A stretch of DNA of 64,000 nucleotides from an uncultured Gemmatimonadaceae bacterium. Lineage in GTDB: Bacteria; Gemmatimonadota; Gemmatimonadetes; Gemmatimonadales; Gemmatimonadaceae. The stretch is from NCBI GenBank assembly GCA_963761305.1, contig CAVXGK010000001.1, forward strand, positions 992,001-1,056,000, in the 5' to 3' direction. A program made the position numbers and the translations under genes. Positions 1,434 through 17,660 of this stretch are shown one piece after another. Each line of letters begins with the position of its first letter. Within the stretch, counting starts at the first letter, position 1. The notes under the pieces were generated by a model. The model ran no database searches. It saw nothing but the letters and a program-made list of their open reading frames with translations, and was not told where the DNA came from.

Positions 1434-2435
1434 ATGGACCTGCTCGAACGCCTTCAACTCTCGCTAGGTGACGCCTACCGCATCGAGCGCGAGCTCAAGG
1501 GTGGGGCGATGTCGCGCGTGTTCGTCGCGAGCGACACCACGCTCGGCCGAACGGTCGTCATCAAGACGCTGCCGCCGGCCCTCACAGCGGGTCTGAGCAC
1601 GGAGCGTTTTCGCCGGGAGATCCGGCTGCTGGCCGCCCTGACGCACCCGAACATCGTGCCGATTCTCTCGGCGGGTGAGCGCGACGGGCTGCTGTACTAC
1701 ATCATGCCGTACATCACGGCCGAGTCGCTGCGAGCGCGGCTGATTCGCGAGCCGACGCTCGCCCTGCCCGATGCGCTCAACGTGGCGATCGAGATCGCCG
1801 AAGCGCTCGATTACGCGCACCGGCAGGGCATCGTCCACCGCGACATCAAGCCCGAGAACATTCTTCTCGCCGACAACCACGCGATCATCTCCGACTTCGG
1901 CATCGCGCGGGCCATCTCGCGCGCCGGCGAGGGCGAGCGGCTCACGGCGATGGGCATGTCGGTCGGCACGCCGGGCTACATGAGCCCCGAGCAGGCGGCC
2001 GGTGAGCTCGACGTTGACGGCCGCGCCGACACGTACGCGCTCGGCTGCGTCCTGTACGAGATGGTCGCGGGTTCGCCGCCGTTCACCGGAAAGAGCGCCG
2101 CCGCTGTGATCGCGGCGCACATGGCGACGCCGGTGCCGTCGGTGCGCGCCGTTCGCTCGACGGCGCCGCAGAAGCTCGACGAAGTGCTCAACCGGGCGAT
2201 GGCGAAGTCACCCGAGGAGCGCTACGCGACCGCCGCGGCGTTCGTGCAAGCGCTGCGCGCCGTCGAAGCGCGGACGCGTCGCCCCGTCATCTCGCGGACG
2301 CCGGTCCCCGCGCCGACGCCGACGGCGATGCCCGTCGTGCAGGCGCCGGCGAGCCGGACGCCGTGGTACTTCGTTGCCGGCGCCGTCGTCGTGATCGCCG
2401 CGCTGGTGGCCGCGCTCGCGATCCGATCCCGCTGA
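1434..2435 (+). CDS. Hanks-type Ser/Thr protein kinase with C-terminal membrane anchor
   Basis: VVIK, HRDIKPEN, DFG and GTPGYMSPEQ motifs; C-terminal hydrophobic helix WYFVAGAVVVIAALVAALAI; no extracellular domain. Confidence 0.93.
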   Translation: MDLLERLQLSLGDAYRIERELKGGAMSRVFVASDTTLGRTVVIKTLPPALTAGLSTERFRREIRLLAALTHPNIVPILSAGERDGLLYYIMPYITAESLRARLIREPTLALPDALNVAIEIAEALDYAHRQGIVHRDIKPENILLADNHAIISDFGIARAISRAGEGERLTAMGMSVGTPGYMSPEQAAGELDVDGRADTYALGCVLYEMVAGSPPFTGKSAAAVIAAHMATPVPSVRAVRSTAPQKLDEVLNRAMAKSPEERYATAAAFVQALRAVEARTRRPVISRTPVPAPTPTAMPVVQAPASRTPWYFVAGAVVVIAALVAALAIRSR

Positions 2436-3623: not shown

Positions 3624-3885
3624 GGCGAGGCTCCCGATGGAGGCTTGGCCGAGTATAGCGCGGTTCGGCCGCCTGCACCACGGGCGGGCGAATCGACCGG
3701 ATTTCGGCGGGTAGTATGCGTATCGGCGACGTCGTGTTGCAGTTCCGATGTGTGCCTTGGATCACTCTTTTGCAGGGCACGACTTCTGCGGCCGATGAGT
3801 CCGCGCAACAGGGTAGACTCCTGCAGTGCGAACGTGTATTTCACTACAGTTGCGTTGGGTTTCTCTCGGGAGTCGTCGCGGAGTC

Positions 3886-4578
3886 ATGTTCGGTGCCCTC
3901 GTCGTCGGTCTGCTGGTTTCCGCGCTCGCGGCCGGAGCGATCGCCATCGTGAGAGCCTGGTATCAAAGCCGGGGGGCGCGCGCGCGTGACGTTTTCCCGT
4001 TGCTCGTGATCCCTCATTCGACAACGCACGTGGAGCCGATGATCGGCCCCGACACGTTTTCGCCGGTGCAGGCCGCGCCCGTGCGTGCCGCGAACGGCTC
4101 GCGCCCGCTGCGTTCGCCGGGACGTCCGGCCGCTGGTGAAACGCTCGTGTTCGACGACGCGCGCTTCGCCGACGTCAATGCCGTGCCGGTGCGCGGCGCC
4201 AATTCCGAGACGGTGAGGTTCCTGCGGCCCGGCGAAGAACAGATTCAGATTCTCCCCGGGCGTCTGGAAGTGCTGGCGGGCGAGCCGGGCCATCGCGAGA
4301 TCCGATTCGTGCGCTCCCCCGGCGAGCCGGCGGAGCTCATCCTCGGACGCGACCCCGGCCCGTCGCCGCATGCGATCGCGCTGCACTCCGACACAGTCAG
4401 CCGCCGCCATGCGCGATTCGCGTTTGCTGATGGGCGCTGGTCGGTGACGAACCTGTCGCGCACCAACCCGGTGGTCGTGAACGACGAACGAATGCACGAC
4501 GACTCGATCGAACGTCCGCTCGCCGACGGCGACCGCCTCGAACTCGGCGAAGTCGTCCTGCGGTTCCGCGCGCGGTAG
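3886..4578 (+). CDS. Membrane-anchored FHA-domain protein
   Basis: ATG 3886 after GGAG; N-terminal TM helix; C-terminal FHA motifs ILGR, VSRRHA, SRTNPVVVN and LADGDRLELG. Confidence 0.88.
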   Translation: MFGALVVGLLVSALAAGAIAIVRAWYQSRGARARDVFPLLVIPHSTTHVEPMIGPDTFSPVQAAPVRAANGSRPLRSPGRPAAGETLVFDDARFADVNAVPVRGANSETVRFLRPGEEQIQILPGRLEVLAGEPGHREIRFVRSPGEPAELILGRDPGPSPHAIALHSDTVSRRHARFAFADGRWSVTNLSRTNPVVVNDERMHDDSIERPLADGDRLELGEVVLRFRAR

Positions 4579-4627
4579 CGCGCCGTCCGCCCATGAACGT
4601 GGCCGTCGTCCCCGCCCTTCGCGATCG

Positions 4628-7342
4628 ATGACCAACGACCGTGCTTCGCCAGGCCTGTCGGCCCTCGAACCCGCCTACGAGATCATCCGCGAGATCGGAC
4701 GCGGCGGGACGTCGGTCGTGTACCTCGCGCAGGAGCGCGCGACGCGGGCCGAGGTGGCGATCAAGCTCATTCGCGCGAAGTACGTCGCTGATGAAGAGGC
4801 GCTGGGCCGCTTCGCGCGCGAAGCCCGATTCCTGGAGCGCCTGGTGCATCCCAACATCGTGCGCGTCCGCGACGTGCTCGAGCTCGGTGATGCCGGGCTC
4901 GCCATCGTCATGGCGCACGTGCCGGGGCGCACGCTCAAGGAATTGATTCGCCAGGAAGGCCGGCTCACGGCCGAACGCACGGAACGGTTCACGCGCGACA
5001 TCGCCCGAGCCCTCGGCGCCGCGCACGCGATGGGAATCGTCCACCGCGACGTGAAGCCGGAAAACGTATTCGTGGACGCCGACGACCGTCCGCTGTTGGC
5101 CGACTTCGGCCTGGCGCGGTCGATGAGCAGCGATTCACAGCTCACGATGGCGGGGGTCGCGATCGGCACGCCGGCGTACATGCCGCCGGAACAGATCGAG
5201 GGCGCGACGCTCGACGCGCGCGGCGACGTCTACAGCCTCGGGCTCGTCGCGTGGGAGATGCTTTCGGGCCGTCGGCCGTGGGAGGGTGAAAGCCTCTACG
5301 CGGTGCTCTACCACCAGCGGTACGAGCAGTTGCCCGACGTGCGGGATCTCCGCGATGACGTTCCCGATTCGCTCGCTGACACCATCGCGGTGGCAATCGA
5401 AAAGCATCCGTCGATGCGCTGGCAGAACGCGACGCAGATGATCGAAGCGCTCGACGGCGCCGCGCCGCCGCAACGCTCACCGCGCCGGCCGCAGCCGTCG
5501 TCCGACACTGTGCGCTTCATGCGCCCGTCGGCCGCGGCGCTCAAGGTCGACTCCTGGATCAGCGAGCCGCCGCCGGCCGCCACGGCGCATCCACCGCCGC
5601 CGCTTTCGCCGCCGCGCGGCACAGCACCCGTCGCCGGGCGCGGCGCCGTTCCGGTCGTCGAGCTCGGCCCCGCCTCGTTTCCGCCGGGAGCGGCGCGGCC
5701 GCGGCATGACACGGTCACGCCGAACACGTTCGCCGCGCTCGCGGCGGAGCTCGACGCGCAGGACGAAGTGCCGGTCTCGCGGTCGCGACGACGCTACGTC
5801 ATCGCCTTCGGCGGAATCGCCGCACTGGCCACGCTCGGCGTCGTCGCCGTCAACGTGCAAGGCCGCTCGAGCGATGCTCACCGCTTGCCGGTTCTCGTCC
5901 AACGCGACTTCGCGATCAACGATTCCGCCGGCAGGGCGCTGCCCCAAACGAAACCGGCCGTCACGCCGCCGGCCGATTCGGTCGACTCGAGCGCAATGGC
6001 TCCGCAGGTCGCTCCGGCGCCGAGCGTCGCGTCGTCGAATGAGGCGCCGCCACAACTGCCCGAAACGCGGAAGTCGCCGCCGCCGACGCATCTCCCGGCG
6101 TCGACGTCCGACCGGCCCGGCAAGACTGTCGCGACGGCGGCGACCGACACGAAACCCGCGGACAAGAAAACGGCGACGACGTCCGGCGAAACCGTCCGAG
6201 ACAAATCGACCCCCAAGCCGCCCGACAAGCCTGTCGCGAAACCGATCGACAATCCGGCGCCGGCGGTCGATCCGCCGGTCGTCAGCCCGCGAGTGACCGT
6301 CGCCGCGGGCGGATTGCATTCGTGCATGCTCAACGCCGACGGCCGCGCCTACTGCTGGGGTGGCAACGATCGCGGACAACTCGGCGCCGGCGGAGCCAAT
6401 TCGGTGGCGACGCCGCTGGCGGTGTCGGGAGACGTCCGATTCACGATGATCGCGACCGGACTCTCGCACAGTTGCGCCGTCGCGCGCGGCGGCGGTGCGT
6501 GGTGCTGGGGCGAGAACGAGCGCGGCCAGCTGGGCGACCGGACGACGATGGCACATCAGGCGCCGATGCGCGTGGCGGACATTCGCATGTTCACGGCGAT
6601 CAGCGTCGGCGCGGCGCACAGTTGCGCACTCGACAGCCAAGGCGAGGCGTGGTGCTGGGGCTCGAACGCCCACGGACAGCTGGGGTCCGACGGCACGACC
6701 GTCGAGATCGGCGCGTCGACGCTCACTTCCGGCGACCATCACTTCAACAGCATTTCGCTCGGTTGGAATTTCAGCTGCGCGCTCGACACGGGCCATGCGT
6801 ACTGTTGGGGCGAGAACGCCAACGGACAACTCGGCGATGGGTCGATCACCGAGCATCGCGTTCCGACCGCGGTGGCGGGCGGGCTGACGTTCAAATCGAT
6901 CGCGACCGGCGCCACGCATGCCTGCGGCATCACGCAGAGCGGCGAAGCGTATTGCTGGGGGAACAACGTCGGCGGGCAGTTGGGCGACGGCACGCGCGTG
7001 GGCCATGAGACGCCGGCCGCCGTGAAGACGTCGCTCCGATTCGTGACGATCGCCGCGGGCGCGCTGCACACGTGCGCGCTGACGGCGGACGGCGGGGCGT
7101 TTTGTTGGGGACGGGACAACTACGGCCAGCTCGGCAACGGGGCGATGTCCCAGGACTCCATGGAGCCGGTGCGCGTGGCCGGCGACCACGCGTTCGCCAC
7201 GGTGCACGCGTTCGGATCGCACACCTGCGGAACGACGGCAGCCGGCGATCTGTTTTGCTGGGGCTACAATCTCGACGGCCAGCTGGGCGACGGCTCGCGG
7301 GTGAATCGGTCGAAGCCCGCGTACGTCGAACCGCCCGGCTGA
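4628..7342 (+). CDS. Receptor-type Ser/Thr kinase: kinase - TM - Pro/Thr/Lys linker - RCC1-repeat beta-propeller
   Basis: GRGG loop, VAIK, HRDVKPEN, DFG, GTPAYMPPEQ; TM YVIAFGGIAALATLGVVAV; seven H-[ST]-C...CWG.N..GQLG RCC1-type repeats. Confidence 0.92.
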   Translation: MTNDRASPGLSALEPAYEIIREIGRGGTSVVYLAQERATRAEVAIKLIRAKYVADEEALGRFAREARFLERLVHPNIVRVRDVLELGDAGLAIVMAHVPGRTLKELIRQEGRLTAERTERFTRDIARALGAAHAMGIVHRDVKPENVFVDADDRPLLADFGLARSMSSDSQLTMAGVAIGTPAYMPPEQIEGATLDARGDVYSLGLVAWEMLSGRRPWEGESLYAVLYHQRYEQLPDVRDLRDDVPDSLADTIAVAIEKHPSMRWQNATQMIEALDGAAPPQRSPRRPQPSSDTVRFMRPSAAALKVDSWISEPPPAATAHPPPPLSPPRGTAPVAGRGAVPVVELGPASFPPGAARPRHDTVTPNTFAALAAELDAQDEVPVSRSRRRYVIAFGGIAALATLGVVAVNVQGRSSDAHRLPVLVQRDFAINDSAGRALPQTKPAVTPPADSVDSSAMAPQVAPAPSVASSNEAPPQLPETRKSPPPTHLPASTSDRPGKTVATAATDTKPADKKTATTSGETVRDKSTPKPPDKPVAKPIDNPAPAVDPPVVSPRVTVAAGGLHSCMLNADGRAYCWGGNDRGQLGAGGANSVATPLAVSGDVRFTMIATGLSHSCAVARGGGAWCWGENERGQLGDRTTMAHQAPMRVADIRMFTAISVGAAHSCALDSQGEAWCWGSNAHGQLGSDGTTVEIGASTLTSGDHHFNSISLGWNFSCALDTGHAYCWGENANGQLGDGSITEHRVPTAVAGGLTFKSIATGATHACGITQSGEAYCWGNNVGGQLGDGTRVGHETPAAVKTSLRFVTIAAGALHTCALTADGGAFCWGRDNYGQLGNGAMSQDSMEPVRVAGDHAFATVHAFGSHTCGTTAAGDLFCWGYNLDGQLGDGSRVNRSKPAYVEPPG

Positions 7343-9288
7343 TGCAGGCCAGCGTCGCCGGTAAGGCTTCCATCACGCCTGCCGTTCGACGAGCCGCCAC
7401 GTGGCTCGTCGGAATCGTGGTGGCCGGTTGCACGAGTGTGCAGACCGACACCGTGAACGGCGGCACGGTCGCTTCCGTTTCGGTCGCGCCGCCGACGACC
7501 ACGTTGTCGCTCGGATCGCAGGTCCCACTGCAAGCCGTGGTGCAGGACGCATCGGGCAACCCGGTCACCGGGGCGGACGTCTTCTGGTCCGTCCGCGATC
7601 CGAACATCGCGACGGTTTCCAGCGTGGGCGTCGTGACCGGCCTCGCGCTCGGCTCGACGCAGGTCGCGGCCAGCTCGAACGGCAAGTCGGGCATCGCCAC
7701 GATCACCGTGCAGAAGACGCCGGTGGCGAGCGTCGTCGTCACGCCGCCCCACGTCGACGCCGCGCCGGGCGTGCACACGCCCCTCACCGCGACGGCGTAC
7801 GACGCGGCGCAGAATCCGTTGACCGACCGCGTGATCACGTGGAGCACGAGCAGCGCGAGCGTCGCGACGGTCGACGCCAACGGCATGATGATCGCCGTCG
7901 GCCCGGGCAACGCGACGATCACGGCGACCTCGGAAGGCAAGAGCGGCACGGCGACGGTGACCGTGTCGCAGGCGCCCGTGGCGACGGTGGCGGTGACGCC
8001 AAGTCCGCTCTCGATGTCGGTGGGTCAATCGACGCAGCTCACGGCCACGCTCAAGGATGCGCAGGGCAACATCCTGAACGGCCGCGCCGTCACCTGGTCC
8101 AGCTCGAACTCCGGGGTCGCGACGGTGTCGGCCCAAGGTCTGGTGACAGCGGTCGCCGCGGGCGCCACGACGATCACGGCGACCAGCGAAACCAAGACGG
8201 GCAGCGACGCGGTGACGATCTCCAACGTGGCCGTCGGCTCGGTCGTCGTGCAGCCGCAGGGGCCGACGATCTTGCAGGGCACGAACGTGCAGCTCAGCGC
8301 GACGGTCCGCGACGTCAACGGCAACATCGTCACGGACCGCGTCGTGACCTGGACGTCGGCCAACACCTCAGTGGCGACGGTTTCGACGTCCGGAGTCGTG
8401 ACTGGCATAGGTTCCGGACAAGTCACGATCACCGCCACCAGCGAGGGCAAATCTGGAACGACGTCGGTCACCGTGACGCCGATCCCGGTCGCGAGCGTCG
8501 CGATTCAGCCGCCGAGCCCTGATACAGTGTTCATCGGCTACACGGCGCAGCTGACCGCCGTGACGAAAGACTCGGCGGGGGCAACCCTCCTCGGTCGGAC
8601 GATCGTCTGGCATTCCGACAACCCCGCGATCGCGACGATCGACGCGACCGGTCTCGTTACGGGTGTCGCCGCGTCGACGACGACGATCACGGCGACGAGC
8701 GAAGGCAAGACTGGATCCGCAACGCTAGTTTCCATGAAGGCGCCCGTAGGAAGCGTGGTCATCGCCCCGACAGTCGACTCGGTGACCGCCGCGGTCACGG
8801 CGCAGTTCACGGCCACCATCCGGGACGCGAAGGGCACGATCGTGACTGACCGGGCGATCAGCTGGAGCAGCAACCAGCCGACGCTCGTCAACGTCGCGCC
8901 GAACAACAATCCGACGGTGGTCGTTTCCGCAAGGAACAAGTCTCTGGGGCAAGTACTGATCATCGCCGCATCCGAGACGAAGGCCGATACGGCAACGGTG
9001 AACGTCATCGACGCCGTGGCGACGGTTCAGGTCACACCGATGAACCCGAACCTCAGTCTTGCGAGCAATCCGACCGTCCAACTCACCGCCACGTGCAGGG
9101 ACATGGCCAATACCGTCGTGACGGGTCGCACGATCAAATGGAGTTCGGCCAATCCAGCCATCGCGACGGTCGACGCGAATGGGCTGGTGACGGCGAAGAG
9201 CGTGGGCATGGTGCAGATCACGGCCACCCCTGTCTTCGACGTCGCCGGCGTGGCATCTCCGCCGGTCACGGTCAAGGTCACACCCTGA
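7342..9288 (+). CDS. Lipoprotein of about 7 tandem bacterial Ig-like (Big_2) domains
   Basis: ATG overlaps the kinase stop (TGATG); lipobox IVVAGC; repeated ~85-aa units with V.W.SS...ATV...G.VTAV..G.ATITATSEGKSG. Confidence 0.88.
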   Translation: MQASVAGKASITPAVRRAATWLVGIVVAGCTSVQTDTVNGGTVASVSVAPPTTTLSLGSQVPLQAVVQDASGNPVTGADVFWSVRDPNIATVSSVGVVTGLALGSTQVAASSNGKSGIATITVQKTPVASVVVTPPHVDAAPGVHTPLTATAYDAAQNPLTDRVITWSTSSASVATVDANGMMIAVGPGNATITATSEGKSGTATVTVSQAPVATVAVTPSPLSMSVGQSTQLTATLKDAQGNILNGRAVTWSSSNSGVATVSAQGLVTAVAAGATTITATSETKTGSDAVTISNVAVGSVVVQPQGPTILQGTNVQLSATVRDVNGNIVTDRVVTWTSANTSVATVSTSGVVTGIGSGQVTITATSEGKSGTTSVTVTPIPVASVAIQPPSPDTVFIGYTAQLTAVTKDSAGATLLGRTIVWHSDNPAIATIDATGLVTGVAASTTTITATSEGKTGSATLVSMKAPVGSVVIAPTVDSVTAAVTAQFTATIRDAKGTIVTDRAISWSSNQPTLVNVAPNNNPTVVVSARNKSLGQVLIIAASETKADTATVNVIDAVATVQVTPMNPNLSLASNPTVQLTATCRDMANTVVTGRTIKWSSANPAIATVDANGLVTAKSVGMVQITATPVFDVAGVASPPVTVKVTP

Positions 9289-9289
9289 G

Positions 9290-12200
9290 ATGAGCTCCCG
9301 TCCGCGGGTGCATCAGCGTTTTCTGAAGCCCGCGGTACGACGGGCCGCCGCGTGGGCCGTGCTCATCGCGGTCGCCGCGTGCAGCCTCACGACGGAAGCC
9401 GTCCCCACGACCGACGTCGCGTCCGTCTCGGTCACGCCACCGACGATGACGCTGTCGGTCGGAGGGCAGGTTCCGCTGCAGGCGTTCGTGGAAGATGCGT
9501 TGGGGAAGCCGGTCGCGGGAACCAGCGTGTTCTGGTCCGTTCAGAATCCGACCATCGCCACGGTTTCGAGCACCGGCGTGGTGACCGGCATGGCAGTCGG
9601 ATCCACCGAGGTCTCGGCGAGCGCGAACGGCAAGTCGGGCATCGCGACGATCACCGTGCAGAAGGCACCGGTGGCGAGCGTCGTCGTCACACCGCCCCAC
9701 GTCGACGCCGCGCCGGGCGTGCACACGCCGCTCACCGCGACGGCGTACGACGCGGCGCAGAATGCGTTGACCGACCGCGCATTCACGTGGAGCACGAGCA
9801 ACGCGAGCGTCGCGACGGTCGACGCCAACGGCGTGATGATCGCCGTCGGCCAGGGCAGCGCGACGATCACGGCGACGTCGGAAGGAAAGATCGGCACGGC
9901 GACTGTCACCGTCTCGCAGGCGCCCGTGGCGACGGTGGCGGTGACGCCAAGTCCGCTCTCGATGTCGGTGGGTCAATCGACGCAGCTCACGGCCACGCTC
10001 GAGGACGCGCAAGGCAACGTCTTGAACGGACGTGTGGTGACCTGGTCCACGTCCAACTCCAACGTCGCCCTCGTCTCCTCGCAAGGAATGGTGACGGCCG
10101 TGGCGCAGGGAGCGGCGACGATCACCGCGACGAGTGAAGGCACCAGCGGCACGGCGTCGCTCACCGTCTCGAACGTGGCGGTCGGCTCGGTCACGGTGCA
10201 GCCGCAATCTCCGTCGATCCAGCAAGGGTCGAACGTGCAGCTCAGCGCCACGATTCGCGACGTGAACGGCGTGATCGTCACCGATCGCGTCATCACGTGG
10301 ACGTCGGGCAACGCGGCCGTGGCGACCGTGTCGAGTACCGGCGTCGTGACGGGAACAGGCGCGGGATCGGCGACGATCACCGCGACATGCGAAGGCAAAT
10401 CCGGCAGCTCGACGGTGACCGTGTCGCTGGTCCCCGTCGGAAGTGTGAGCGTGGCGCCGACGCCGGTGACGATTCGCATCAGCGGGACGACGACGCTCAT
10501 CGCCACCGTCAAGGACGTGAACGGCCTCGTCGTCACGAATCGCGGCGTGACCTGGTCGTCGAGCACTCCGGGTGTGGCGACTGTGTCGGCGGCGGGTGAA
10601 GTGACAGGCGTCGCGCTGGGCACGACGACGATCACGGCGACGAGCGAGACGAAGAGCGGCACGGCGTCCGTCACGGTGACCAACATTCCGGTCGGCAGCA
10701 TAACGCTGGCGCCGCTCACGAAGGGCTTGCTCGTCACGCAGACGGTGACGCTCACACCAACGGTCAAGGACAGTACGGGCGCCGTGGTGACCGACCGCCC
10801 GTTGACGTGGGGCTCGAGCGCGACGGGCGTGGCGACTGTATCGTCGGCCGGCGTGGTGACCGCGATCGCGCCGGGCACGGCGACCATCTCCGCGACGGCC
10901 GAAGGAAAAAGCGGGTCGAGCACGATCACCGTGTCGCCGATCCCAGTCGGCATCGTCGTCGTCACGCCGCCGTCTGACAGTCTCGCGGTCAACGGAACCA
11001 TTCAGCTCACGGCGACGACGGAAGATTCGGTCGGCGGGGTGCTCACCGGTCGCGTCGTGACATGGGGATCGAGCAACCCGGCCGCGGCCACTGTTTCGGC
11101 GACCGGACTGGTCACCGCGACAGCGAACGCCGGCGCGACGACGATCACCGCGACGAGCGAAGGCAAGAGCGGCACGTCGGCGATCACCGTGTACGTGCCC
11201 GTGGCGACGGTGACGGTCGCGCCACCGACGGCGACGATCTTCCTGGCGCAGACGCAGGCGTACACCGCGACGACGAAGGATGCGGGCGGGAACGTCCTCA
11301 CCGGACGGAAGGTGACGTGGGCCTCGGGCAATCCGAGCGTCGCCGCGGTGAACAGCACGTCGGGCGTGGCGACGGCGGCCGGACCGGGAACAACCACGAT
11401 CACGGCGACGAGCGAAGGCAAGTCGGGAACGGCGTCGCTCACGGTGCTGGTGCCGGTGGCGAACGTTCTCGTCGCTCCGCCGAGCGACAGCCTCGTGGTC
11501 AACGGAACCATTCAGCTCACGGCGACGCCGGTGGATTCGGTCGGTGGCGTGCTCACCGGTCGGACGGTCACGTGGGGATCGAGCAACCCGGCGGCGGCCA
11601 CGGTCTCGGCGACCGGCTTGGTCACGGCGGGCGCGAACGCCGGCACGACGACGATCACCGCGACGAGCGAAGGCAAGAGCGGCACCTCGGCGATCACGGT
11701 CTACGTTCCGGTGGCGACGGTCACGGTCACACCGACGCCAGTGAACCTGTTCGTGACGCAGACGCAGCAGTTCACCGCGACGACGAAGGACGCGGGCGGG
11801 AACGTCCTCACCGGCCGCAAGGTGACGTGGGGCTCGAGCAGTCCGCTCGTCGCGAGCGTGAGCACGTCGGGGCTCGCGACGGCGCTGCTCGTCGGGACGA
11901 CGACGATCACCGCGACGAGCGAAGGCAAGTCGGGCACTGCGACGCTGAACGTGGCGCTCGTGCCAGTGGCTACCGTGCACGTCAATCCGACGACGGACAG
12001 CCTGGTGGTCAACGGAACCATTCAGCTCACCGCGACGACGCTGGATTCGGTCGGCGGCACGCTTACCGGTCGCACGATCACGTGGGGATCGAGCAACCCG
12101 GCGGCAGCCACGGTCTCGGCGACAGGCCTCGTCACGGCCGGTGCGAACCCCGGCACGACGACGATCACGGCGACGAGCGAAGGCAAGAGCGGGACGTCGG

Positions 12201-13777
12201 CGATCACGGTGTACATCCCTGTCGCTTCGGTGACGGTCGCGCCGCCATCGGCGACCATTCTTCCGACACAGACACAGACGTTCACGGCGACAACGAAGGA
12301 CGTTGGCGGGAACGTCCTCACGGGCCGGCTCGTGACTTGGGGCTCGAGTGTTCCAGGTGTCGCGACGGTGAACTCGTCGGGAGTCGCGACGGCGGTCGGT
12401 CAGGGAACGACGACCATCACGGCGTCGAGCGAGGGCAAATCAGGAACGGCGTCGCTGACCGTGCTCGTACCGGTGGCGAACGTTCTCGTCTCTCCGACGA
12501 GTGATAGCCTCGTCGTCAACGGCAGCATTCAGCTGACGGCGACGCCGGTGGACGCGGGCAACAATCCGCTGGCCGGACGCACCGTGACGTGGGGCTCGAG
12601 CAACCCGGCCGCGGCCACGGTCTCGGCGACGGGCGTCGTCACCGCGACGGGAAACCCCGGCACGACGACCATCACCGCGACGAGTGAGGGCAAGAGCGGG
12701 ACGTCGGTGATCACCGTGTATGTCCCCGTCGCATCCGTGACCGTCGCGCCGCCCACGTCGAGCGTGACGGTCGGGAACACGACGACTCTCACGGCGACGA
12801 CGCTGGATGCGTCGAGCAACCCACTCACGGGACGGCTGATCACGTGGAACTCGCTGAACCCGACCGTGGCGACTGTTTCACCGACCGGGCTCGTCACCGT
12901 CGTGGGCCGAGGGACGGCGACGATCACGGCGACGAGCGAGGGCAAGTCGGGATCGGCGACGGTCACCGGCACCGCGGCGAGCGTGACGGTTGCTCCGGCG
13001 CCAACGACAACTTTCGTCACCGGCACCGTGACGTTGACGGCGACGGCGCTCGACGCTCACGGCGTGGCGCTTCCAGGTGTTCCAGCAACGGCGTTCGCCT
13101 GGTCGTCGGATGGTCCCGGATTCGCGACGGTGTCGACGAGCGGCGTCGTGACTGGCGTGGCGCTCGGCAGCGCGAACATCAGCGCGCAGATCGACGGCAA
13201 ATCCGGCGCGTCGACAGTGACGGTTCTCGCACCGCCGGTTGCGAGCGTGACCATCTCACCCCACGGCGCGACGATCTTCACAGGCGGCTCCGTTCCACTC
13301 ACCGCCGTGGTGAAAGACGTCAACGGGACCGACGTCACCGCCGGTCACCCTCCGGTGTGGTCGTCGACGGTTCCATCGGTCGCCTCGGTGACGGCGGCCG
13401 GCGTCGTGTTTGCGGCCGGACCGGGAACGACACAGATCACCGCCACGACTGACGGAAAGAGTGACACAGTGACCGTCACGGTTCTTGCGACCGTGGCAAG
13501 CATCACGATCACGCCGGCCGGCGACGTTACCATCGGTACGCCTGTGACACTCACGGCGAACTTGTTCGACGCGGCGCACAATCCGATCACCGGCCGATCC
13601 GTGACGTGGTCGATCAGCGTTGGCAGTACAATTGCGACGCTCACGCCGAGTGGGAACACCGCGCAAATCGCCGGCATTCTCGCGCAGACGGGGGTGACCA
13701 TCACGGCTTCATTGGTACCGCTCACCGGCGAGACCCCGCCGCCGCCCGGAACCCTCTCAGTCAACATCGTACCGTAG
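9290..13777 (+). CDS. Lipoprotein of about 17 tandem Big_2 Ig-like domains
   Basis: Starts 1 nt after the previous stop; lipobox AVAAC; about 17 Big_2 units counted by eye. Confidence 0.9.
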   Translation: MSSRPRVHQRFLKPAVRRAAAWAVLIAVAACSLTTEAVPTTDVASVSVTPPTMTLSVGGQVPLQAFVEDALGKPVAGTSVFWSVQNPTIATVSSTGVVTGMAVGSTEVSASANGKSGIATITVQKAPVASVVVTPPHVDAAPGVHTPLTATAYDAAQNALTDRAFTWSTSNASVATVDANGVMIAVGQGSATITATSEGKIGTATVTVSQAPVATVAVTPSPLSMSVGQSTQLTATLEDAQGNVLNGRVVTWSTSNSNVALVSSQGMVTAVAQGAATITATSEGTSGTASLTVSNVAVGSVTVQPQSPSIQQGSNVQLSATIRDVNGVIVTDRVITWTSGNAAVATVSSTGVVTGTGAGSATITATCEGKSGSSTVTVSLVPVGSVSVAPTPVTIRISGTTTLIATVKDVNGLVVTNRGVTWSSSTPGVATVSAAGEVTGVALGTTTITATSETKSGTASVTVTNIPVGSITLAPLTKGLLVTQTVTLTPTVKDSTGAVVTDRPLTWGSSATGVATVSSAGVVTAIAPGTATISATAEGKSGSSTITVSPIPVGIVVVTPPSDSLAVNGTIQLTATTEDSVGGVLTGRVVTWGSSNPAAATVSATGLVTATANAGATTITATSEGKSGTSAITVYVPVATVTVAPPTATIFLAQTQAYTATTKDAGGNVLTGRKVTWASGNPSVAAVNSTSGVATAAGPGTTTITATSEGKSGTASLTVLVPVANVLVAPPSDSLVVNGTIQLTATPVDSVGGVLTGRTVTWGSSNPAAATVSATGLVTAGANAGTTTITATSEGKSGTSAITVYVPVATVTVTPTPVNLFVTQTQQFTATTKDAGGNVLTGRKVTWGSSSPLVASVSTSGLATALLVGTTTITATSEGKSGTATLNVALVPVATVHVNPTTDSLVVNGTIQLTATTLDSVGGTLTGRTITWGSSNPAAATVSATGLVTAGANPGTTTITATSEGKSGTSAITVYIPVASVTVAPPSATILPTQTQTFTATTKDVGGNVLTGRLVTWGSSVPGVATVNSSGVATAVGQGTTTITASSEGKSGTASLTVLVPVANVLVSPTSDSLVVNGSIQLTATPVDAGNNPLAGRTVTWGSSNPAAATVSATGVVTATGNPGTTTITATSEGKSGTSVITVYVPVASVTVAPPTSSVTVGNTTTLTATTLDASSNPLTGRLITWNSLNPTVATVSPTGLVTVVGRGTATITATSEGKSGSATVTGTAASVTVAPAPTTTFVTGTVTLTATALDAHGVALPGVPATAFAWSSDGPGFATVSTSGVVTGVALGSANISAQIDGKSGASTVTVLAPPVASVTISPHGATIFTGGSVPLTAVVKDVNGTDVTAGHPPVWSSTVPSVASVTAAGVVFAAGPGTTQITATTDGKSDTVTVTVLATVASITITPAGDVTIGTPVTLTANLFDAAHNPITGRSVTWSISVGSTIATLTPSGNTAQIAGILAQTGVTITASLVPLTGETPPPPGTLSVNIVP
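10945..12725 (+). repeat. Intragenic tandem repeat of a ~510-bp two-domain unit (about 3.5 copies)
   Basis: AACGGAACCATTCAGCTCAC recurs at 10991, 11501 and 12011, with a variant at 12518; the protein alternates two domain types A-B-A-B-A-B-A. Confidence 0.85.
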
Positions 13778-13782
13778 CTGTC

Positions 13783-14877
13783 ATGAGTATTCGATCATTG
13801 GCCGCGCTCGGCGCGACGCTCGTTCCTCTCGCCATCCAGGCGCAGGCGCCGATTCCCAAGGAGCCGCTCAAGCAGCGGCCCGTCGTCGTGCGAATGCGCT
13901 CCGCGTGCAGCGGTGCCGTCGCCCAAACGTCATCGCCGACGGACGCTCAGCGTCGCGAAGCTCGCGACATGGCGCAGGCGGCGCGACAGTCGGCGATCCT
14001 CGGCGACACGGCCGCTGCGCTCAGCCAATTGCGCGGCGCGGCAGGCCTCGATCCCACCGACGCGAATCTCGCCTTCGAGCTGGCGCGCGCATACGAGAGC
14101 GCGGGCGCTCTCGCGAACGCCGCGTCGGAGTACTGCCGATTTCTGTCGCTTGCGCCGAACGCTTCCGAAGCATCCGAGGTCCGCACGCACGTCGCCGCGA
14201 TCGCGCCGCCCAAGCCCGACACGATCGTCACCGTCGAAGGGAACGCGTTCAAACGCGGCGTCGACGCGTACGGCAAGGACCAGCTCCCCGAAGCCGAGGC
14301 GTCGTTCGGCACGGTGATCAAGATCGATTCCACCTCGGCCGACGCGTTTTACGATCGCGCGGTCGTCCGCGCGGCACAGGAGCGGCGCGGCGACGCTGCC
14401 GACGACTTCGAACACTATTTGCGGATTCGCCCGGAAGCGGCCGACCGTGCCGGCGTCGTGGCGCGCATCAACGAGTTGCGCGCCGTGGGCCTCTCGGCCT
14501 CGGAAGCGTTCGGACTCGGCGTCGTCCTTCCGGGCGGCGGCCAGTTCTACACCCGGCGCCCGATCCGCGGAATGCTGTCGCTGATCGCGGTAGGCGGAGC
14601 GGCGGGGATCGCGCTGGTGTCCAAGACGACGACGACGACGAAGACACTGTCGGCCACAGACCCGTTCGGCAACCGCTACAACTACACGGTTCCCGTGCCG
14701 AACAAGTCGCGACCATACCTCATCCCGGGCCTGGCCGCCGCCGGCGGCATCGCGTTGGCCAGTGCGATCGACGCGGCCCTCTACGCGCACAACGTGCGTG
14801 CGGGCACCGGCTTGTCCGTCTCGCTCGTGCCGAGTGCCGGCGGCGTCGGCGTGTTCGCGTCGCTCAGGGTTCCCTGA
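13783..14877 (+). CDS. Exported TPR-repeat protein with C-terminal membrane segments
   Basis: ATG 13783 with signal peptide ending AIQAQA; TPR-like helices (LDPTDANLAFELARAYE, IDSTSADAFYDRAVV, YLRIRPEA); LPGGGQFY motif, two hydrophobic helices and an amphipathic strand-like C-terminus. Confidence 0.75.
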   Translation: MSIRSLAALGATLVPLAIQAQAPIPKEPLKQRPVVVRMRSACSGAVAQTSSPTDAQRREARDMAQAARQSAILGDTAAALSQLRGAAGLDPTDANLAFELARAYESAGALANAASEYCRFLSLAPNASEASEVRTHVAAIAPPKPDTIVTVEGNAFKRGVDAYGKDQLPEAEASFGTVIKIDSTSADAFYDRAVVRAAQERRGDAADDFEHYLRIRPEAADRAGVVARINELRAVGLSASEAFGLGVVLPGGGQFYTRRPIRGMLSLIAVGGAAGIALVSKTTTTTKTLSATDPFGNRYNYTVPVPNKSRPYLIPGLAAAGGIALASAIDAALYAHNVRAGTGLSVSLVPSAGGVGVFASLRVP

Positions 14878-14990
14878 CGCGCGTCCCGCGGCGGTCTCGT
14901 CAGTTAGGCGATCGCGTGGAGCGAATCGTCAACGACGACGAGGGATCGCCGTAAACTGGATCAGCTCTTGCGGAGGGGTCTTCTCCTTCT

Positions 14991-17660
14991 GTGAGGGAGA
15001 AGAGCTTGCCTCGGGCGCGGCGCGGAATGGTTTGGATCGCGGCGACGATCGTGGCGGCGTGCAGCGCGGCAACGGACGTCGCGACTACGGCCAACGTCGC
15101 GACCGTGTCGATCGCGCCGCCGTCGACCACTGTGTCGATCGGCTCGCAGATTCCGCTTCAGGCGCTCGTCCAGGATCCCGGCGGGAAGACGATCCCCGCG
15201 ACGGACGTTTTCTGGTCCATCCAGGACTCCAGCATCGCGACGATCTCCAGTACCGGGGTCGTAACCGCGGTCGCACTCGGATCGACGCAGGTCGCGGCGA
15301 GTGTGAATGGCAAGTCGGGAATCGCCACGATCACCGTCGAGAAGACCCCGGTGGCAAGTGTGGTCGTCGCGCCCCCGCACGTGGATGCCGCGCCGGGCGC
15401 GCACACGCAGCTCGCGGCTGTCACGTATGACGCCGCGCAGAGTCCGCTCCCCGGCCGCGCCGTCACGTGGAGCACCAGCAACGCCGCCGTCGCCACGGTC
15501 GATGCGAATGGCATGGTGTCCGCCTTGAGTCCGGGCACCGCGACGATCACCGCCATGTCGGAGACCAAGACCGGTCTCGCGATCATTACGGTCTCGCAAG
15601 CCGCCGTCGCGAACGTGGCGGTGACGCCGAGTCCGCTGTCGATGTCGGTCGGCCAGACGACGCAGTTGACGGCCACGCTCAAGGACACCGTGGGCAACGT
15701 GCTGAATGCACGCGTGGTCGTGTGGTCCAGCGCCAACCCCGCGGTGGCCACGGTTTCATCGCAAGGCGTGTTGACGGCGATCTCGACCGGTCGTGCGACG
15801 ATCACCGCCACGAGCGAAGGCCGGAGCGGTACCGCCGACGTCACGATCACGAACGTGCCCGTCGGCTCGGTGACGATTCAGCCACAGGCACCATCGGTCG
15901 TGATCGGAACGAACGTGCAACTCAGCACGATCGTTCGCGACGCGAATGGCGACATCGTCACCGATCGCGTGGTGACGTGGGCGTCGAGCAATCCTGCGTC
16001 GGCGACGGTGTCGACGTCCGGCGTCGTGACGGGTGTTTCCGTTGGCAGCGCCACCATCACGGCGACGAGCGAAGGAAAATCCGCGACGACCATCGCCACG
16101 GTCATTCCGGTGCCGATCGGCAGCGTCACCGTCTCGCCGGCGACGGCGAGCACGCACATCGGATCGACGACGACTCTCACGGCCACCGTCAAAGATCAAA
16201 ACGGGACGGTGGTGACGAATCACATAGTCACCTGGACATCGAGTAACCCAGCCGTCGCCACGGTCGCGGGCGGTGTCGTCACCGGCGTCGCGCTCGGCAC
16301 CGCGACGATCACCGCGACGAGCGACGGAAGAAGCGGGACGGCGTCGGTGACCGTAGCGGGATTGCCCGTCGGCAGCGTGACCGTCGCACCGGCGAGCAAG
16401 GCGATGCTCGTCGCGCAGAATTTCGCGCTGTCCGTGACCGTGAAAGATTCAATCGGCGGCGTCGTCACCGATCGGCCTGTGTCGTGGAGCTCGAGCAATG
16501 CGAGCGTCGCGACCGTGTCGGCGTCGGGCGTCGTGACGGCCGTTGCCCCTGGCTCGGCGACGATCACCGCCACGAGCGAGACGAAGAGCGGCACCAGCGC
16601 GATCACAGTGTCGCCGGTGCCGGTGAGCTTCGTCGTCGTTCAACCGCCGCGCGATACGATGTTCGCCAGCACGACGTTCCAATTGACGGCGCAGACACAG
16701 GATTCCGTTCACGGTGTTCTCACCGGCAGAACCGTGACCTGGACGACGAACAACGCGTCGGTCGCCACCGTGTCGTCGACAGGAGTCGTCACCGCGACGT
16801 CCACCGGCGGCAACGCCACGATCACGGCCACCAGCGAGGGAAAGAGCGGCACGTCGGCGATCACCGTAGTCGTTCCGATCGCGACGGTCGCTGTCACGCC
16901 GGCGACCAAGAGCATCCTCGCCGGGGACACCGCGCCGTTCGCGGCGACGGTCAAGGACGCGCTGGGCAACGTTCTCAACGGCCGCGTCCTGCTCTGGAGC
17001 TCGAGCAACCCCGGTGTCGCCACCGTCTCGCCGACCGGAACAGCGACTGGCACCGGCGTCGGCGTCACGACCATCACCGCCACGGCGCCGCTCGAGGGGA
17101 AATCGGGCAGCGCGACGCTGACCGTCAACGCCGCTTCAGTCAGCGTGACGCCGTCACCGGACTCCGCGTACATCGGGCAGACGGCGACGCTGACTGCGAC
17201 GGCCAAAGACAAGAACGGGAATCCGGTGCCGGCGCAGGGCTTCAGCTGGAGTTCGACCAACTCTGGCGTCGCCACCGTGTCGCAAGCGGGGCTGGTGACC
17301 GCTGTAGCCGCGGGCTCGGCGAACATCGTCGCCACGCTCACCGGTCAATCCGGCCAAGCCACCTTCAAGGTCCTCGCGCCGGTGGCAACCGTCACCGTGT
17401 CTCCGTCGAATCCACCGGCGATCGCGACCGGCAAGAACGTGGCGCTGCAAGCGGCGCTCAAGGATGCGTCGAACGCCCCTATTGGCCCGGGTCGCGTGGT
17501 CACGTGGTCGACCAACGACACCAGCGGCATCGTCACCATCACACCGACGGCGGGGACCTACAACGCGACGGTGAGAGGCAACAAGGTTGGTACCGTCACC
17601 ATCACGGCGACCAGCGAGGGCAGGACGGGAACGGCGACCGTTACCGTGACGAAGAACTGA
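14991..17660 (+). CDS. Lipoprotein of about 10 tandem Big_2 Ig-like domains
   Basis: GTG start after GGAGGGG; lipobox IVAAC; about 10 Big_2 units, the first ones colinear with the two upstream paralogs. Confidence 0.88.
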   Translation: MREKSLPRARRGMVWIAATIVAACSAATDVATTANVATVSIAPPSTTVSIGSQIPLQALVQDPGGKTIPATDVFWSIQDSSIATISSTGVVTAVALGSTQVAASVNGKSGIATITVEKTPVASVVVAPPHVDAAPGAHTQLAAVTYDAAQSPLPGRAVTWSTSNAAVATVDANGMVSALSPGTATITAMSETKTGLAIITVSQAAVANVAVTPSPLSMSVGQTTQLTATLKDTVGNVLNARVVVWSSANPAVATVSSQGVLTAISTGRATITATSEGRSGTADVTITNVPVGSVTIQPQAPSVVIGTNVQLSTIVRDANGDIVTDRVVTWASSNPASATVSTSGVVTGVSVGSATITATSEGKSATTIATVIPVPIGSVTVSPATASTHIGSTTTLTATVKDQNGTVVTNHIVTWTSSNPAVATVAGGVVTGVALGTATITATSDGRSGTASVTVAGLPVGSVTVAPASKAMLVAQNFALSVTVKDSIGGVVTDRPVSWSSSNASVATVSASGVVTAVAPGSATITATSETKSGTSAITVSPVPVSFVVVQPPRDTMFASTTFQLTAQTQDSVHGVLTGRTVTWTTNNASVATVSSTGVVTATSTGGNATITATSEGKSGTSAITVVVPIATVAVTPATKSILAGDTAPFAATVKDALGNVLNGRVLLWSSSNPGVATVSPTGTATGTGVGVTTITATAPLEGKSGSATLTVNAASVSVTPSPDSAYIGQTATLTATAKDKNGNPVPAQGFSWSSTNSGVATVSQAGLVTAVAAGSANIVATLTGQSGQATFKVLAPVATVTVSPSNPPAIATGKNVALQAALKDASNAPIGPGRVVTWSTNDTSGIVTITPTAGTYNATVRGNKVGTVTITATSEGRTGTATVTVTKN

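Follow-up and report, generated by a model that had tools for sequence, protein, structure and literature searches.

FHA domains bind phosphothreonine on cognate kinases (PMC4238996), and in the TagQ/TagR-PpkA-Fha1-PppA pathway of the H1 type VI secretion system (T6SS) of Pseudomonas aeruginosa a lipoprotein and extracytoplasmic partners act on a membrane Hanks kinase, which is combined with an FHA reader and a PP2C phosphatase (PMC13713981). Slam, or type XI secretion, joins N-terminal TPR to a C-terminal membrane domain and is encoded beside lipoprotein genes (PMC7857515). Borrelia P13 is porin-active and predicted to be a helical homo-oligomer of ~300 kDa (PMC6879480), and plant CRINKLY4/ACR4 is a receptor kinase with a disulfide-stabilised seven-bladed outer propeller (10.1101/2020.08.10.245050). 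In this work we describe six genes from a 64,000-nucleotide stretch of an uncultured Gemmatimonadaceae genome (the window), which encode a membrane-anchored FHA protein, a membrane Hanks kinase ending in an RCC1 propeller, three lipoproteins formed by immunoglobulin-like (Ig) Big_2 domains, and a TPR protein with a C-terminal domain of helices and beta-hairpins (the TPR-hairpin protein). The module is real, conserved and a variant of trans-envelope kinase-FHA signalling, yet it fails the defining tests of the T6SS pathway, Slam and PknB, and no published description of it was found in the literature searched, most subscription papers and supplements lying outside that search. The six genes very probably form one functional unit, in which every physical link is a predicted one.

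All six open reading frames (ORFs) lie on the + strand and code, in order, for 230, 904, 648, 1495, 364 and 889 or 877 residues, the last depending on the start at 14991 or 15027 (Table 1). These calls agree with a preliminary description of the window, which had claimed six co-oriented genes, and the junctions that it listed (a TGATG overlap at 7340-7344, a 1-nucleotide gap at 9289 and a 5-nucleotide gap before 13783) are present in the sequence as given; the gap is 49 nucleotides from FHA to kinase gene and 113-149 nucleotides from the TPR gene to the last Big gene. Its domain assignments were likewise recovered by Pfam search: FHA at 1.8e-12, Pkinase at 2.9e-50 together with seven RCC1 repeats, TPR_9 at 8.7e-11, and Big_2 in all three lipoproteins. 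Besides the hydrophobic helices of the FHA protein and the kinase (Table 1), there is one at residues 261-279 of the TPR protein. The window genome (G000) encodes 55 Hanks kinases, 8 RCC1 proteins and 19 Big proteins and, outside the locus, 4 PP2C genes, in addition to a single gene with the C-terminal domain of the TPR protein and a single FHA protein of the module type. With so many kinases and Big proteins, a kinase beside Big genes could be due to chance, and conservation was therefore tested.

Within the window's family (f1), a homologue of the FHA protein was found in 70/151 genomes, from 38/77 genera; this tally, like those given below for the hairpin domain and for TssC, takes in the unpublished genomes G007, G134, G225 and G299, on which nothing else in this work depends. 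Forty FHA-anchored loci were hand-picked from the 69 other positive genomes, favouring higher scores and longer contigs, and 30 of them, from 20 genera, keep the order FHA, (PP2C), kinase-RCC1, Big, TPR. Three of the remaining loci end at a contig or stretch edge, five consist of FHA and kinase-RCC1 only, and two of FHA alone. Big-TPR pairs are duplicated together in L043 and L044, and a Big gene 3' of the TPR gene also occurs in L031, L041-L044 and L060. The flanking genes of nine scanned loci differ from locus to locus, except for the BipA neighbourhood of one lineage, so no output gene travels with the gene set.

Beyond the family, the C-terminal hairpin domain was found in 56/401 genomes of the phylum (f1 36/95, f4 4/7, f5 1/2, f2 0/166, and 14/70 in f7, a family of another order of the same class). 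A profile search raises the count to 96/401, the 40 added genomes scoring only E>=4e-12. A Big domain lies <=1.8 kb from 67/72 hairpin-domain genes, among them 37/40 from hairpin-domain-anchored loci; two of the five genes that have none so near adjoin a long gene with Big_2 domains further off. In 6/10 extended f7 loci the whole set is present in permuted order (TPR, Big, FHA, PP2C, kinase-RCC1), with FHA and PP2C fused in four of the six, and these loci led us to drop the idea that kinase and FHA are an addition peculiar to one family. The genes stay together in 20 genera and recur, rearranged, in another taxonomic order, so the first condition under which the preliminary description would be refuted, a loss of co-location in related genomes, does not apply. 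The other four f7 loci comprise two with a membrane-anchored RCC1 stalk protein that lacks a kinase, one with RCC1 at the contig edge and one with none. An RCC1-anchored scan of 8/64 parts of the collection, in which the best 80 of 606 loci were 38 from Gemmatimonads and 42 from other bacteria, gave no kinase-RCC1 fusion, Big domain or hairpin domain in those 42 with our own hidden Markov models (HMMs), and a contig search with the single TPR protein as query gave no relative; close homologues of the window TPR protein are labelled Gemmatimonadaceae. As a separate observation, in L085:4621-7701 (-) an RCC1 stalk protein carries a full DnaJ in the kinase's place, and in L217:8087-10879 an extra N-terminal part with a second hydrophobic segment is found there, which suggests that the cytoplasmic modules of these proteins are swappable.

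Table 1. Features of the gene set, in window coordinates; ranges in the last column are residues unless they have five digits or stand in brackets
Feature	Position	Strand	Details
Sigma54-like promoter site GG-N10-GC, predicted	3776..3789	+	Pattern search
Membrane-anchored FHA protein	3886..4578	+	Transmembrane helix 4-22; Pro-rich linker; candidate phosphosite T109 (4210-4221); FHA 152-221
Type II membrane Hanks kinase	4628..7342	+	Kinase 17-271; juxtamembrane T294 motif (5507-5518); transmembrane helix 390-408; ~145-residue Pro/Ser/Thr linker; RCC1 propeller 554-904
Big_2 lipoprotein A	7342..9288	+	Cys30; 7 Ig domains; aromatic signature in domain 1
Big_2 lipoprotein B	9290..13777	+	Cys31; 17 Ig domains; aromatic signature in domain 1
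TPR-hairpin protein, predicted outer-membrane	13783..14877	+	Signal peptide-like N-terminus; TPR array with invariant C42/C118
TPR-hairpin protein, C-terminal part		+	PGxGQ 14530-14544; helix 14560-14613; long beta-hairpin 14623-14709; helix 14719-14802; C-terminal beta-hairpin 14812-14865
Big_2 lipoprotein C	14991..17660	+	Start 14991 or 15027; 10 Ig domains; aromatic signature in domain 1

The preliminary description had proposed a relay from the kinase to the FHA protein, and the signalling part supports it. The catalytic motifs of the kinase are intact in 34-37 of 38 homologues, and the motifs for phosphothreonine binding are present in 48, 48 and 44 of 49 FHA homologues. Moreover, kinase and FHA protein have in common a Thr-Val-Arg-Phe (Thr-x-x-Phe) motif, at T294 and T109, respectively; FHA domains show a preference for the residue at +3. 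The strict motif follows the kinase domain in 32/48 homologues, compared with 0.4 in shuffled sequences and 0/54 among the other kinases of G000, and it stands at the matching site of the FHA linker in 14/59 (0.2 shuffled), the pattern having been derived from the window sequences and counted afterwards; a looser pattern is found in 42/48 kinase homologues and 7/54 control kinases. The kinase scores 278.8 bits with the PknB/Stk1 model NF033483, the cut-off of which is 450 bits, and its ectodomain is RCC1, not PASTA. The propeller is separated from the membrane by a linker of ~105-165 residues in the full f1 loci, and stands on Big_1 stalks in f7 and f4; in L162 and L169, both kinase fusions, the spacer is made of four Big_2 domains. 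The propeller is thus always held off the membrane, which would fit a reach to the outer membrane. These two fusions (L162:5084-9973, L169:2186-5992) are kinases of Gemmatimonadales in which Big_2 domains flank the membrane helix on either side, five and two of them lying towards the kinase, and in which the chain ends in an RCC1 propeller.

The module RCC1 matches PDB entry 7a0j at 2.2e-28, and the FHA-PP2C fusions of f7 parallel the plant phosphatase KAPP (PMC2553837). Unlike ACR4, the module kinase is N-terminal, giving the reverse topology, and has no cysteine-rich domain; the likeness is probably convergent.

An active-type membrane Hanks kinase with an FHA partner, as in the T6SS pathway, is recognised by its sequence motifs, and the logic of lipoprotein, membrane kinase, FHA and PP2C is the same (PMC13713981), so the set might be the PpkA/Fha1/PppA equivalent of such a system. 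All five loci without Big/TPR (L049, L054, L056, L064, L065) belong to TssC-positive genomes, compared with 5/30 full loci, and L054 has TssM/TssL/TssK ~7.5 kb off. However, TssC (PF05943) was not found in G000, which is 93% complete, and was found in only 21/70 FHA-positive genomes, and the FHA protein reaches 31.7 bits against the 120.25-bit TagH cut-off (TIGR03354). The module also differs in its RCC1 sensor, its Ig-rod and TPR-hairpin partners and the membrane anchor of its FHA protein. A PP2C gene is present in 6/10 f7 loci and, between FHA and kinase, in 4/40 f1 loci; the window locus has none. We think that a T6SS role is almost certainly wrong: it is largely refuted for G000 and could fit the shortened variant only. 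In the loci without Big/TPR, which come from three genera only, the kinase linkers look shorter (41-100 residues, boundaries uncertain), and co-option of a shortened FHA and kinase-RCC1 variant for T6SS control is possible.

Several variants of the locus were seen in passing. The shortened module lies antisense between the 16S rRNA gene and tRNA-Ile(GAT) in L064 (6334-7858 and 2234-2307) and L056 (11643-13175 and 17129-17202); tRNA-Ile is divergent and upstream in 12/35 scanned loci, and in L057 the Big/TPR genes sit where the 16S gene would be. One lineage (L055, L057, L060-L063, L066, L067, L070) has two tandem FHA paralogues ahead of the kinase. In L071-L074, L076 and L109, a long TPR-hairpin form (~660-700 residues, with a Big_1 domain in both members scanned) is encoded apart from the FHA gene, in tail-to-tail arrangement with the gene of a Big_2 lipoprotein. 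A short Hanks kinase encoded at 1434-2435 (+) of the window, which has a membrane anchor at its C-terminus but lacks an ectodomain, was rejected as a module member, since an aminotransferase gene on the opposite strand intervenes and it is near the module in loci of the same genus only.

By our own HMM, lipoproteins A, B and C contain 7, 17 and 10 Big_2 domains, with a lipobox-type Cys 10-11 residues ahead of the first domain in each of them. A and B are paralogues, as the first 1.1 kb of B has 80% DNA identity to A. Complete lipoprotein genes of the module range from 2 domains (L053, L058) to 21 Big_2 domains, and some go on into Big_1-type repeats. The tandem Big_2 arrays (8gyr at 5e-19) and the succession of lipobox and Big_2 recall the leptospiral LigA/LigB, which are surface lipoproteins; unlike these, the module lipoproteins are encoded with a kinase module and have a module-specific first domain, and the Gemmatimonad host lineage is free-living. 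In 47/64 first domains from f1 loci, an aromatic residue stands ahead of the core Trp, against 5/378 internal domains; the signature was found in 0/15 lipoproteins of control loci and 0/15 scored non-module Big proteins of G000. Among the lipoproteins from f7 and f4, the constant part is a tether with one Big_2 domain, the Cys-to-domain spacing being exactly 8 in 22/25 proteins, followed by DUF11, Big_1, fn3, TIG or RCC1 payloads. The type of N-terminus tracks the hairpin type of the family and not the presence of RCC1. From these sequence patterns we infer that the lipoprotein N-terminus may be a module-specific docking site. Outside the window, at G000 C1:738103-741327, an unrelated 8-domain Big_2 lipoprotein is encoded in an apparent polysaccharide gene cluster; it does not have the first-domain signature.

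The preliminary description had the RCC1 kinase sense the Ig rods directly. In its sharpest form, the propeller would bind Big domain 1, for example on a lipoprotein that is still periplasmic, and the kinase would monitor the trafficking or retention of the rods, much as NlpE monitors lipoprotein trafficking for Cpx. Big and RCC1 are joined in one chain in many Gemmatimonad proteins, the first Big gene directly follows the kinase gene in the window, with the TGATG overlap, and the aromatic signature of domain 1 appears to face outward. Against this, only 1/25 non-f1 first domains has the signature, although f7 has kinase-RCC1, and for this reason the idea that the aromatic patch binds RCC1 was dropped. 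Furthermore, L120 has a kinase and a TPR gene with no Big gene between them, and the Big genes of f7 and f4 adjoin the TPR gene on its 5' side. We consider direct sensing unlikely. A three-chain complex prediction (RCC1, TPR protein and Big 1-2) scored 0.44, its partner-replaced controls 0.02 and 0.00, and its RCC1-replaced control 0.53, which is evidence neither way.

In both structure models of the TPR-hairpin protein (mean predicted local distance difference test scores, pLDDT, of 85.9 and 88.1), the TPR array leads into the PGxGQ motif and a hydrophobic helix; a beta-hairpin of 29 residues separates this helix from a second one, and a terminal beta-hairpin, modelled with the lowest confidence, comes last. 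Both C42 and C118 are conserved in all of 33 sequences. Among the non-f1 members, a Cys pair is found at the hairpin tip in 19/19, and Phe or Trp is last or next to last in 18/19, an end that can be compared with the BAM beta-signal (PMC13067283). If the Cys pairs are disulfides, TPR part and hairpin are both extracytoplasmic, which a two-helix topology in the inner membrane cannot give; from this we infer that the protein is probably in the outer membrane. The hairpin domain has 531 representatives at E<=1e-10, and four natural proteins among the best 150 matches, singled out because so many stretches in them matched, have the helical unit three or four times in tandem after a single TPR array, which suggests that the units pack side by side as an oligomer. 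The domain is also found fused to a caspase-like Peptidase_C14 or directly to Big_2 (L082:14183-15250, P0175, P0245, L090:4315-5400).

That the whole set works in the periplasm, to space the envelope or sense its integrity, with rods pointing into the periplasm and the TPR protein in the inner membrane, is in our opinion very unlikely. Two hydrophobic helices after a signal peptide are by default read as inner-membrane segments, and the minimal lipoproteins of two domains would fit such a place. An Ig domain is ~4 nm long, however, and rods of 17-21 domains far exceed the width of the periplasm; the payloads are typical of surface proteins, the hairpin Cys pair would be cytoplasmic, and the roughly tenfold spread of domain number is unlike a ruler.

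A dedicated translocon for surface lipoproteins has to be weighed as well. The TPR-hairpin oligomer would then be a Slam analogue with a helical pore, for which tether and domain 1 are the export signal and which the kinase gates or monitors. The layout of a TPR N-terminus and a membrane C-terminus beside lipoprotein genes is that of Slam (PMC7857515), the f7/f4 lipoproteins have only the tether and one Big_2 domain in common, with the fixed spacing noted above and diverse payloads, and the look-alike P13 is porin-active and a predicted helical homo-oligomer (PMC6879480). Unlike Slam, the TPR-hairpin protein has no 14-strand barrel: both structure models show four strands in two hairpins plus helices, that is, helix-hairpin-helix with one terminal beta-hairpin, and a kinase module goes with it. 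Of 20 genomes chosen as module-negative, 19 encode tandem Big_2 proteins, and 8-domain lipoproteins are among these (L191, L198); in one genome so chosen, G067, a weak homologue of the hairpin stands next to a Big gene. The TPR-hairpin protein is thereby ruled out as a general Big exporter, which also weakens, as a general role, the help in rod assembly that the preliminary description ascribed to it. G000, in turn, has 16 other Big proteins and one hairpin-domain gene, so rods need no such partner or use another route. On balance, a dedicated translocon seems to us unlikely.

The likeness to DUF5683, DUF6677 and P13, on which the translocon partly depends, is weak and, for the window protein, lies under the Pfam cut-offs. 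Weak matches at the start of the PGxGQ-helix part are found in 42 and 40 of 72 members at E<=1; the window protein scores 13.9 bits for DUF5683 (gathering cut-off 26.7) and 17.6 for DUF6677 (24.3), the relative L086 reaches 25.1 bits for DUF6677, and P13 is not among 25 of 29 Pfam families listed for the hairpin domain. The Atlas scores, at the level of a lead, range over 0.88-0.92, with 0.91 for DUF5683 (44% of the cluster) and 0.88-0.89 for P13 (80%), and 140-168 features are shared. Unlike these families, the module domain is fused to TPR, has a long inserted beta-hairpin and is firmly linked to Big lipoproteins and a kinase. One DUF5683 protein is listed in a P. gingivalis vesicle table (PMC13744359). 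Fold searches gave generic TPR matches only for the full TPR model and nothing at E<=0.001 for the C-terminal domain, the best Z being 6.4 (root-mean-square deviation 3.0, 53 aligned) on generic helical hairpins; a PDB sequence search with that domain gave a best E of 0.33. The lack of a PDB match does not establish that the fold is new or different.

Upstream of the first FHA gene, sigma54-like sites were found in 23/49 loci with a preset score (6.2 in shuffles) and in 20/49 with a pattern tuned afterwards (1.5 expected); the site of the window follows the sigma54 consensus GG-N10-GC. An RpoN box was found in G000. A sigma70 scan gave 0 sites, terminator-like sites were at chance level, and the RNA search returned no RNA holder.

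We give about an even chance to the gene set building an envelope-spanning bridge, from surface Ig rods through an outer-membrane TPR-hairpin oligomer and the inner-membrane RCC1 kinase to FHA and PP2C. The basis is gene order, domains, intact catalytic and phosphothreonine-binding residues, conservation and module-specific motifs, from which the links are predicted. The genes would be co-transcribed from a sigma54-type promoter, and the lipoproteins would reach the outer membrane, where tether and domain 1 dock on the TPR-hairpin protein, whose oligomer would anchor them with the Ig rods exposed at the surface. On its long linker or Ig stalk, the propeller would bind the periplasmic TPR side, so that occupancy, contact or load of the rods may cluster the kinase and lead to autophosphorylation, T294 included. 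The membrane-anchored FHA protein could then bind pT294 and be phosphorylated at T109, forming a local phospho-scaffold, and PP2C, where attached or encoded, would reset the kinase. The output is probably local, at an adhesion or contact focus, because neither a transcription factor nor a secretion machine is kept next to these genes.

Several observations weigh against this bridge. Its parts are separable, as the RCC1 stalk proteins without kinase (L214, L217), the 5/40 loci without Big/TPR and the 2/40 with FHA alone demonstrate. The Thr motif is missing in 6/6 f7 kinases, and its strict form is found in only 14/59 FHA linkers. Within f1, the hairpin Cys pair is present in 0/53 members and a last or next-to-last Phe/Trp in only 26/53, Phe is not the last residue of the window TPR protein, three members have no C-terminal hairpin and one no long hairpin. 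Moreover, the loci were hand-picked, related genomes are not independent and the locus sets partly overlap. A further-reaching proposal, which we regard as decidedly unlikely, makes the TPR-hairpin protein the founding member of a class of outer-membrane translocons (DUF5683/P13-like) that are helical and oligomeric and recognise lipoproteins for export by the tether and first Ig domain. Physically coupled to the RCC1 kinase, it would form an integrin-like touch receptor that signals from outside to inside, its kinase and phosphatase resembling the ACR4/KAPP pair.

Gemmatimonadota are abundant in soil and sediment, and to our knowledge the inputs of their Hanks kinases are unassigned. The module ties one of the 55 such kinases of G000 to defined envelope partners, with T294 and T109 as candidate phosphosites, and it gives a first functional context to an outer-membrane-type domain resembling DUF5683/P13. 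According to a review, the surface-lipoprotein translocons of Bacteroidetes and spirochetes are still undiscovered (PMC7857515), and thus even a partial role in export or anchoring would matter beyond the phylum. If the combination of translocon and receptor were true, it would also offer a lead to the lipoprotein flippase that is still missing in Bacteroidota and spirochetes.

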